64,000 bases of DNA. It comes from Escherichia coli (GTDB taxonomy: Bacteria; Pseudomonadota; Gammaproteobacteria; Enterobacterales; Enterobacteriaceae). Under the pieces are notes generated by a model that was given only the letters and a program-made list of their open reading frames with translations, was not told the origin of the DNA and did no database searches. Both the position numbers and the translations under genes were made by a program. The stretch is from the NCBI RefSeq assembly GCF_030013205.1, contig NZ_CP122648.1; one strand, 5' to 3'. Positions 42,141 to 43,813 of the stretch are shown one piece after another; positions within the stretch are counted from its first letter, which is position 1; every line of letters starts with the position of its first letter.

Positions 42141-43813
42141 TTGCTTTGTATCATCGTAAAAATGTCTTTCAGACATGTGTCATTTATTTTGTCACTAACA
42201 AGTCAAAAATATCACGGGTTATTTATGAAAGTATTTCACAATATATTTAAGCACTTCTCTTCAAACCATCAAGATAAGCATTCAGATAAAGTTAACAGTC
42301 ATCAACACCATGGCAATGTTGATAAAAAACATCGTTCAAAGATAGTTGAAATTGATAAGCTGGATAAACATTCGCAAATAGATAACGATTTTGGCCTGCA
42401 TATCATCTATTTCCTGCAACATGGCTGCTGGAACGTAACTGAACATAGTCCTCAGATAGAAAAACTGTGGTTTTACAATAGTGAGCCATCTATAGATATT
42501 AAAGAATATAATGGTTTCGCCGATAATACTACTGACACGTTTATCTTTACAATTATACCAGACAATAACCATGTGATAAAATTATCGTCTCCCATTACCG
42601 TTACGATTGAGCGTAAGGACGGTTATTATTTTATTAATTTCTCCGGGGATAAATCAGACATAATTTATAAAGTTGATGGGTTTTCTATCATACCTGAAAA
42701 TTTTTTTACTCTTCTTAGCGGTAATTTTAAAGCTGACTGGCGTTGGGCTGTCTCTAAAGAGACGTTTACTAAGGAAAAGTTTGATAGCTATGTTGAATCT
42801 GTTTTTTCAAAAATAGACTTTTATAAACAGTGTGGTGTGATTAACCCAAAAAATCCCAACACGGCTTATTTTGGCGATACAGATGGAAGAGTGGGCGCTG
42901 TACTTTATGCATTGCTCGTTTCAGGGCATATAGGCATCAGGGGAGAGGGGGGAGTTTATTATGTCAATTATTAAAACACGAAGACATGGCGTCATTCGCA
43001 TATGAAAATAAAAAATTGAAAAAACTCTTCACTTTATTAGATACGAGAGACATGATCTTGAATGAGTTGCATCAACATGTTTTTTTAAAAGGCGATGCGA
43101 TTACCCCTTGTATCTTCCTTGGGGATCATACAGGCGATAGATTTAGTACTATTTTTGGTGATAAATATATCCTTACTTTGCTAAATTCTATGCGAAATAT
43201 GGAGGGTAATAAAGATAGTCGTATAAATAAAAATGTTGTCGTTCTGGCTGGAAATCATGAAATCAATTTTAATGGTAACTATAGTGCACGACTAGCAAAT
43301 CATAAACTCTCTTCCGGTGATACATATGACTTAATTAAAACGCTCGATGTTTGTAATTATGACTCAGAAACGAAAGTTTTAACCAGTCATCACGGAATAA
43401 TAAGAAATGAAGAAAATGAATGTTATTGTCTAGGTGCTTTGCAGGTTCCATTTAATCAGATGAAAGACCCAATTGATCCTGAGGAATTAGCAAATATATT
43501 TAATAAAAAACATAAACAACACATGGATGATCGTCTTATCCATCTAATTAGAAGCAATGCTATAGCATCCACACCTGTATATGACAATTATTTTAATAAC
43601 ACTACTGCTTTCAGACCAAAACCTGAAGATATCTTCAAATGTGGACAGACGCTCAAAAAAAGTAAACAGAAATATGGCCATTATGGATTAGGGGTAGATC
43701 AGCATCAAAAAATTGATAATTATACCATGGGGCTAAATTCCTGGAAGATAGCACCTAACGAACGTGGTGATAAAAAAGGTGTCCCAGGGCTTAGTTGTTT
43801 TCAATCTCATTAA
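42141..43813 (+). pseudogene. yhiL: yhiKL: DUF4049-family paralog of yhiJ, split into two ORFs (ends 42974; resumes 42986) by a frameshift at a G6 tract
   Basis: Both halves align with YhiJ (YFGDTDGxVGAVLYAL…; FLGDxTGDRFS…LAGNHE); adding one G at 42947-42952 fuses the frames and restores homology across the junction. Confidence 0.75.

Follow-up and report, generated by a model that had tools for sequence, protein, structure and literature searches.

Is the gene between yhiM and yhiJ in this Escherichia coli broken in the bacterium, or is it broken only in the sequence that was assembled from it? The window, by which is meant the whole stretch of 64,000 nucleotides that was analysed, carries at this position a member of the YhiJ/YhiL family that is read in two pieces, and the two pieces meet at a short run of G residues. 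The features concerned are the following.

42225..43813, plus strand: YhiJ/YhiL-family gene (yhiL/yhiKL-like), with Pfam DUF6860 at aa 40-164 and DUF4049 at aa 210-526; frameshifted as assembled
42225..42974, plus strand: ORF1, the N-terminal fragment of 249 aa, which ends 7 codons past the G tract
42947..42952, plus strand: G6 run (GGGGGG), the site of the frameshift; G7 in the nearest relatives
42986..43813, plus strand: ORF2, the C-terminal fragment of 275 aa, which holds the DUF4049 motifs GDHTGDR, LAGNHE and SHHG
44075..45697, plus strand: yhiJ, the intact paralogue of 540 aa, taken as the comparison sequence

The C-terminus of ORF1 reads ...GHIGIRGEGGVYYVNY at 42974 (in a longer form, ...GIRGEGGVYYVNY), and ORF2 is read in the -1 frame with respect to ORF1. 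Addition of one G to the tract gives ...GEGGSLLCQLLKHEDMASFAYENKK... and a single open frame through 43813, which aligns with YhiJ at 35% identity over residues 146-506 (E=3e-73). The initial annotation had described a single-base frameshift at the G6 run 42947-42952 that splits yhiKL and is rescued by one G to yield a paralogue of YhiJ; the tract, both ORFs, the rescue and the alignment are all as it described them. A frameshift caused by a one-base shortfall in the G run is thus present in the assembled sequence, and chance is not at issue, because the lesion is specific and lies in a recognisable gene. In Pfam searches the restored protein matches DUF4049 with E=1.3e-154 and DUF6860 with E=3.3e-81. 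Its joining into one protein stands, and its length requires correction from about 560 to 529 aa, because both PGAP and the homologues start at ATG 42225; 557 aa are obtained from TTG 42141. By the same token, 42141 is the start of the gene only in a mechanical sense, as the first TTG of a correctly identified frame (277 aa for ORF1 from that codon), and the start in use in the PGAP annotation and among the homologues is ATG 42225. The intact allele with G7 encodes 529 aa with Gly at position 243. The tract itself is embedded in an 18-nt all-purine stretch, CAGGGGAGAGGGGGGGAG. On the identical locus of ETEC1748, PGAP gives the label 'DUF4049 domain-containing protein, frameshifted'. The gene order yhiN, yhiM, yhiL-like gene, yhiJ, yhiY, yhiI is found in every annotated relative, and the position between yhiM and yhiJ is that of yhiL/yhiK in other E. 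coli.

Whether the shortfall belongs to the chromosome can be judged from genomes that are nearly identical to the window. Window positions 20001-45000 match ETEC1748, ETEC4069, ETEC4070 and ETEC4071 perfectly. The nearest genomes with G7 compare with the window as follows.

NCTC UGEY01 (G7), 21.6 kb: 0 SNPs and two single-base indels, namely the tract and A8/A7 at 52242
W13-16 (G7), about 20 kb: 1 SNP, plus the tract
P15-25 and two drafts (G7), about 20 kb: 2 SNPs each, plus the tract
ETEC4075 (G7), 40 kb: 5 SNPs, plus the tract

Private substitutions and an insertion sequence divide these genomes into sublineages, each of which includes both lengths of the tract.

Sublineage A, private SNPs 25821, 30298 and 30585: G6 in the window, in ETEC1748 and in the perfect matches of the latter; G7 in NCTC UGEY01
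Sublineage B, private SNPs 52134 and 62709: G6 in ETEC4068; G7 in ETEC4075
Sublineage C, IS1 in the permease gene and 35662A: G6 in ETEC6333; G7 in P15-25 (French)

In sublineage B, ETEC4068 and ETEC4075 share the two private SNPs and show 0 mismatches in 40 kb besides the tract, and in sublineage C, the 26 kb compared between ETEC6333 and P15-25 contain 1 SNP in addition to the tract. The two-piece match of ETEC6333 is seen again with ETEC6334 and ETEC1701.

Some of these markers deserve a comment in their own right. IS1 splits the permease gene (window ~24700-25170; positions 5282-6043 of the sequences L044 and L045) in P15-25 and ETEC6333, and the window lacks it; the same IS1 is deduced from match length in ETEC6334 and ETEC1701, W13-16 has an IS1 at the same gene, and the insertion is a useful sublineage marker. 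The SNPs 25821, 30298 and 30585 are private to the sublineage of the window when compared with all other lineage members examined, and the change at 30298 makes a CCTGG (Dcm) site. Substitutions at methylation motifs in Nanopore-only assemblies can be artefacts too. The ETEC1748 record (131991-181990, L043) is not collinear with the window beyond the rhs/nik region, past the window end; its nik operon is situated ~30 kb away beside another RHS element, which suggests either an RHS-mediated rearrangement among otherwise identical genomes or a misassembly.

The distribution of the two tract lengths follows the source of the sequences. All ten G6 genomes come from PRJNA917806 (PMC10151945), whose strains are F18+ and Stx2e+ and whose chromosome lengths in Supplementary Table S1 are those of the RefSeq records (PMC10151945). 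They were sequenced on Nanopore R9.4.1 with the SQK-RBK004 rapid barcoding kit, basecalled with Bonito 0.4.0, assembled with Trycycler and polished with Medaka 1.5.0, with no Illumina data and no short-read polishing; for their control strain the authors state Q50 accuracy (PMC10151945). Inside this study the tract is G6 in 10 genomes and G7 in 1, and outside it all 6 lineage genomes have G7 (K_EC180, W13-16, P15-25, NCTC UGEY01 and two drafts) and none has G6 (10:1 against 0:6, Fisher exact ~6e-4 by hand calculation). The closest relatives from outside the study are O139:H1 strains. G6 thus tracks the sequencing study and not the phylogeny. It is known that R9.4.1 consensus sequences retain homopolymer indels, and hence frameshifts, unless they are polished with short reads (PMC9262707), and that homopolymer length is underestimated, giving a deletion bias (PMC12007338).

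Since the break is found only in genomes built from uncorrected nanopore reads, and the gene is intact, with G7, in the nearest relatives, a sequencing artefact is its most likely cause. The long reads had no short-read polishing, G7 is what independently made assemblies of the nearest relatives show, and the call goes with the study, as expected of an error of this kind. Judging from the assemblies, we put at roughly 0.8 the probability that G6 is a homopolymer under-call and that the organism has G7 and an intact gene; that is, the feature is most likely in the sequence and not in the organism, an assembly error of the sort that the initial annotation had listed as a counter-explanation to its own reading. 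The events may be pictured as follows. The window comes from a genome assembled from R9.4.1 Nanopore reads alone, that of a porcine F18+/Stx2e+ E. coli belonging to the O139:H1 lineage. In its real chromosome the tract would be G7 and the gene would encode a 529-aa YhiJ/YhiL-family protein with Gly243. The basecaller and the consensus step would have dropped one base from a seven-G run within the purine stretch, and the apparent frameshift would then have led the NCBI pipeline to annotate a pseudogene.

The first alternative to be weighed is a genuine replication slip from G7 to G6. It would have made a pseudogene in the ordinary way, of a gene that is decaying in many E. coli lineages. The initial annotation had preferred such slipped-strand inactivation. 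G7 is indeed the ancestral neighbour state, many strains carry independent breaks in the gene, G6 is seen on two other backgrounds (2013C-4974, and an NCTC strain together with ERR1010180), and ETEC4075 shows that the pipeline is able to call G7. However, three sublineages each have G6 beside a G7 relative, so that a real G6 would need at least three independent contractions, or a contraction followed by reversions, in isolates that are 0-1 SNP in 26-40 kb from their G7 sisters and that all belong to one Nanopore-only study; G6 is found in 0 of the 6 lineage genomes from outside that study, and its product is absent from other gene calls. The ORF1 product of G6 is missing in four start forms from about 15 billion called proteins, an absence that is informative only for non-NCBI gene calls, because NCBI-annotated drafts emit no protein for a pseudogene. 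Inactivation by slippage in the bacterium is therefore not upheld by these comparisons, and we regard it as unlikely, although it is the strongest of the competing explanations.

Several observations bear directly against the under-call. ETEC4075, from the same pipeline, has G7, which means that the under-call is not universal; if it is an error, it is specific to this site and nearly systematic, ETEC4075 being the exception. In comparisons of about 112 kb with the relatives, the only single-base homopolymer indels are the tract and one A8/A7 difference, and the feature coordinates of ETEC4068 and ETEC4075 are identical for 276 kb upstream of the tract. On the other hand, the G7 tract is the only G/C run of at least 7 in about 112 kb of W13-16, so that this comparison of Nanopore assemblies with W13-16 is without power for under-calling; a homopolymer scan of the window found no G/C run of at least 7. 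The G6 of the NCTC strain GCA_900448615, on another background, recurs with the same sequence in a separate run, ERR1010180, and genuine G6 alleles of the site probably exist elsewhere in the species. In the annotated assembly of 2013C-4974 the tract is G6, against G7 on 876 contigs with the same type of allele; only one complete genome has the exact flanks of this background, which leaves no useful G7 denominator there.

Two other length differences bear on the question. The gene lyxK, also labelled 'frameshifted' in ETEC1748, was rejected as a second error because it is uninformative: its lesion is a 92-bp deletion. The second run that differs among relatives, at window 52242-52248, is A7 (GAGAAAAAAATAC) and lies inside an Imm57-family immunity pseudogene. 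It is A8 in W13-16, NCTC UGEY01 and one draft, and A7 in P15-25, ETEC4075 and ETEC4068; the shorter A7 is found in 3 of the 3 Nanopore assemblies examined (the window, ETEC4075 and ETEC4068).

A wider survey clarifies where the G7 run came from. The locus was found in 4187 of 5426 complete E. coli genomes and varies to an unusual degree, with identity as low as 88.6% among the matches listed. Among the first ten alleles compared, every allele without the deletion reads GGGGTGG or GGGTTGG, with a T and a Trp codon at the site. By exact 35/36-mer search of the 5426 complete genomes, G6 with the flanks of the window was found in 10 genomes, all from the one study, and GGGGTGG (Trp243), the state that the site shows most often, in the same 36-mer context in 432 genomes. 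Five complete genomes have G7 with the same 91-nt flanks: K_EC180, W13-16, P15-25, ETEC4075 and ST3. The length of the query matters here: a 36-mer megablast query centred on G7 returned nothing, because the DUST low-complexity filter masks runs of at least 7 and leaves no 28-nt seed, and it was the 91-nt query that found the G7 genomes. Short G6 queries are not affected by DUST, and a short-query census of G6 against G7 is therefore biased. The protein restored by the initial annotation (Gly97, Gly243) is on record exactly, on 115 contigs in a collection of 15 billion proteins (P0166), and also in two longer start forms, including the upstream variant of the window itself. Thus the tract-length comparison that it had proposed places G6 in ten genomes of a single study and G7 in the nearest relatives, and its view of G7 as the intact state beside the G6 allele of the window is confirmed.

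G7 occurs on another background as well (P0138; its DNA, L032, reads GAGAGGGGGGGAG) and on a third (P0173, 876 contigs). GGGGTGG is found even within the same pig-associated lineage, in EC556, EC571 and EC581, whose sequence is nearly that of the window throughout 25 kb. The G7 run is recent and real, and it arose by a T-to-G change (Trp243Gly) in GGGGTGG within this lineage; from the alleles at hand, the order of states would be TGG (Trp243), then GGG (G7, Gly243), then G6. Residue 243 is E in YhiJ, V in the homologue P0206, and W or G in YhiL alleles; as it is not conserved, the Trp-to-Gly change is plausibly harmless.

The same data bear on another route to G6, direct loss of the T from GGGGTGG, by which no homopolymer would have been shortened. 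GGGGTGG is the commonest state (432 genomes) and is present in the same pig lineage (EC556, EC571, EC581), and the NCTC G6 background has an intact counterpart on record of the T type and none of the G7 type. For the window, every nearest relative carries G7 and not T. Loss of the T was dropped as an explanation here, G7 alleles being common as proteins and found in DNA by the 91-nt query, and it appears highly improbable.

Taken across E. coli, five states of the site were seen: GGGGTGG, G7 (three backgrounds), G6 (three backgrounds), GGGTGG and GGGGTAG (W243*). The alleles behind this comparison are those of the window (42947-42952) and of L012, L015, L016, L018, L022 and L032. The GGGTGG state is represented by 9 Logan contigs, some of which bear additional frameshifts. 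Either the site is prone to mutation, or it is in part prone to sequencing error; a T between runs of G would fit misalignment mutagenesis.

Since lengths with the gene intact (ON) and interrupted (OFF) are both found in near-identical isolates, the tract might also be a contingency switch that turns the gene ON and OFF at high frequency, and the initial annotation had raised the possibility of reversible switching. G6 and G7 are found in isolates otherwise identical over 40 kb, the pattern occurs in three sublineages, and the tract was newly made by the T-to-G change. Yet the OFF state is confined to one technology, coming from Nanopore-only assemblies alone, and a G8 product was looked for in two start forms and not found, so that the length is seen to vary in one direction only. 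Seven G's make a short tract for known phase-variation switches. The G7 codons are without sign of selection as a tract, since W243 is not conserved (E in YhiJ, V in P0206), and the unrelated lesions in many lineages look like decay and not regulation. The suggestion of reversible switching is thus not sustained, and a contingency switch seems very improbable. Scarcely better is the specific case that the run made by Trp243Gly in the porcine O139:H1 oedema-disease lineage now alternates rapidly between G7 (ON) and G6 (OFF); were it true, E. coli would here have a contingency locus of very recent origin.

It could further be supposed that the G6 allele yields the full-length protein by programmed -1 ribosomal frameshifting or by transcriptional slippage on G GGG GGA. 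X XXY YYZ is the slippery pattern, and the zero-frame G GGG GGA formally matches it. The relatives, however, have an uninterrupted ORF, and the shifted arrangement is not conserved; no stimulatory RNA structure was found downstream (MFE -7.3 kcal/mol, z = -0.22 against shuffles). This reading is hardly credible.

The name of the locus calls for some care. In naming it yhiKL, the initial annotation identified the right locus and family, but the lesion that this name implies is a different one: in K-12 the yhiKL frameshift affects an A-run that lies some 470 nt further downstream than the G tract, where A7 stands against AAAATAAA, AAAATGAA or A8 in intact alleles. In the K-12 derivative DOC14 (L010) the shift is at alignment column 1193, and the G-tract site reads GGGTTGG; the K-12 and window alleles are 88.9% identical. 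The site corresponding to the K-12 lesion is at ~43410-43425 in the window (GAAGAAAATGAATG). The K-12 yhiKL pseudogene and the gene of the window therefore share the yhiM-yhiJ locus, the family and the type of lesion, a single-base homopolymer frameshift, but one lesion is in an A7 run and the other in the G tract, and since the two are apart the locus name covers at least two unrelated lesions. Still other lesions of the gene comprise stops at codon 42 (two strains), IS2 and IS1 insertions, W243* (P0140), a 7-bp deletion, a 2-bp insertion and, in A/T runs, several changes of a single base. Errors may likewise account for some single-base lesions in assemblies of other strains. Literature searches on yhiL, yhiK and yhiJ gave nothing relevant to the lesion, and searches on DUF4049 and the strain names gave no papers.

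The YhiJ/YhiL family is very small, with 50 hits, mostly fragments, among 1.84 billion representative proteins. The DUF4049 region has metallophosphoesterase-like motifs in canonical order, GDTDG, GDHTGDR, LAGNHE and SHHG (window 42870-43300, aa 217-348). In the allele type of 2013C-4974, LAGNYE takes the place of LAGNHE. GDxDG, GDxxGDR, GNHE and HHG in this order are a likeness to the calcineurin-like metallophosphoesterases and to the phosphatase domain of Legionella WipA; unlike members of those families, YhiJ gives profile matches far below the curated cut-offs. Its sub-threshold matches are to Pfam Metallophos (E=0.0079; 17.1 bits, below the gathering cut-off of 21.5), Pfam WipA_Phos (E=0.031) and NCBIfam T4SS_Wip (E=0.0033). 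The PDB gave no match by sequence or by profile, and an AlphaFold2 model built on an 8-sequence alignment (pLDDT 44.5) is too poor to test the fold. The resemblance is at present a lead only. If the frameshift were real, the first motif would be parted from the rest, and any putative phosphoesterase activity should be lost.

What the locus means depends on which reading is right. Should G6 be an artefact, the locus illustrates cleanly how a false pseudogene has found its way into RefSeq, here in ten genomes. Homopolymer frameshifts of this sort will go on being picked up when long-read-only assemblies are scanned as raw sequence, and a short-query BLAST census of G6 against G7 can fail silently through low-complexity masking of runs of at least 7. 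If G6 is real, it adds an ordinary inactivation to those that the gene has already undergone in K-12 and in many further strains, and one already annotated by PGAP; wider interest would attach to it only under the unlikely reading of rapid switching.

Two kinds of known system offer the closest comparisons for the tract. The poly-G/C contingency genes of Neisseria, Haemophilus and Campylobacter resemble it in that the length of a coding poly-G run sets the reading frame. Unlike those switches, the yhiL-like tract is short, its OFF length is found only in error-prone assemblies, and no longer length is recorded. The likeness to homopolymer deletion errors in R9.4.1-only assemblies lies in a run that is 7 in trusted relatives and one shorter here, in an assembly made without short-read polishing, in a call that goes with the study and not with the phylogeny, and with a PGAP 'frameshifted' pseudogene as the result. 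In two respects the case differs from such errors, in that ETEC4075 of the same pipeline calls G7 and the surrounding 100 kb is otherwise almost free of differences of this kind.
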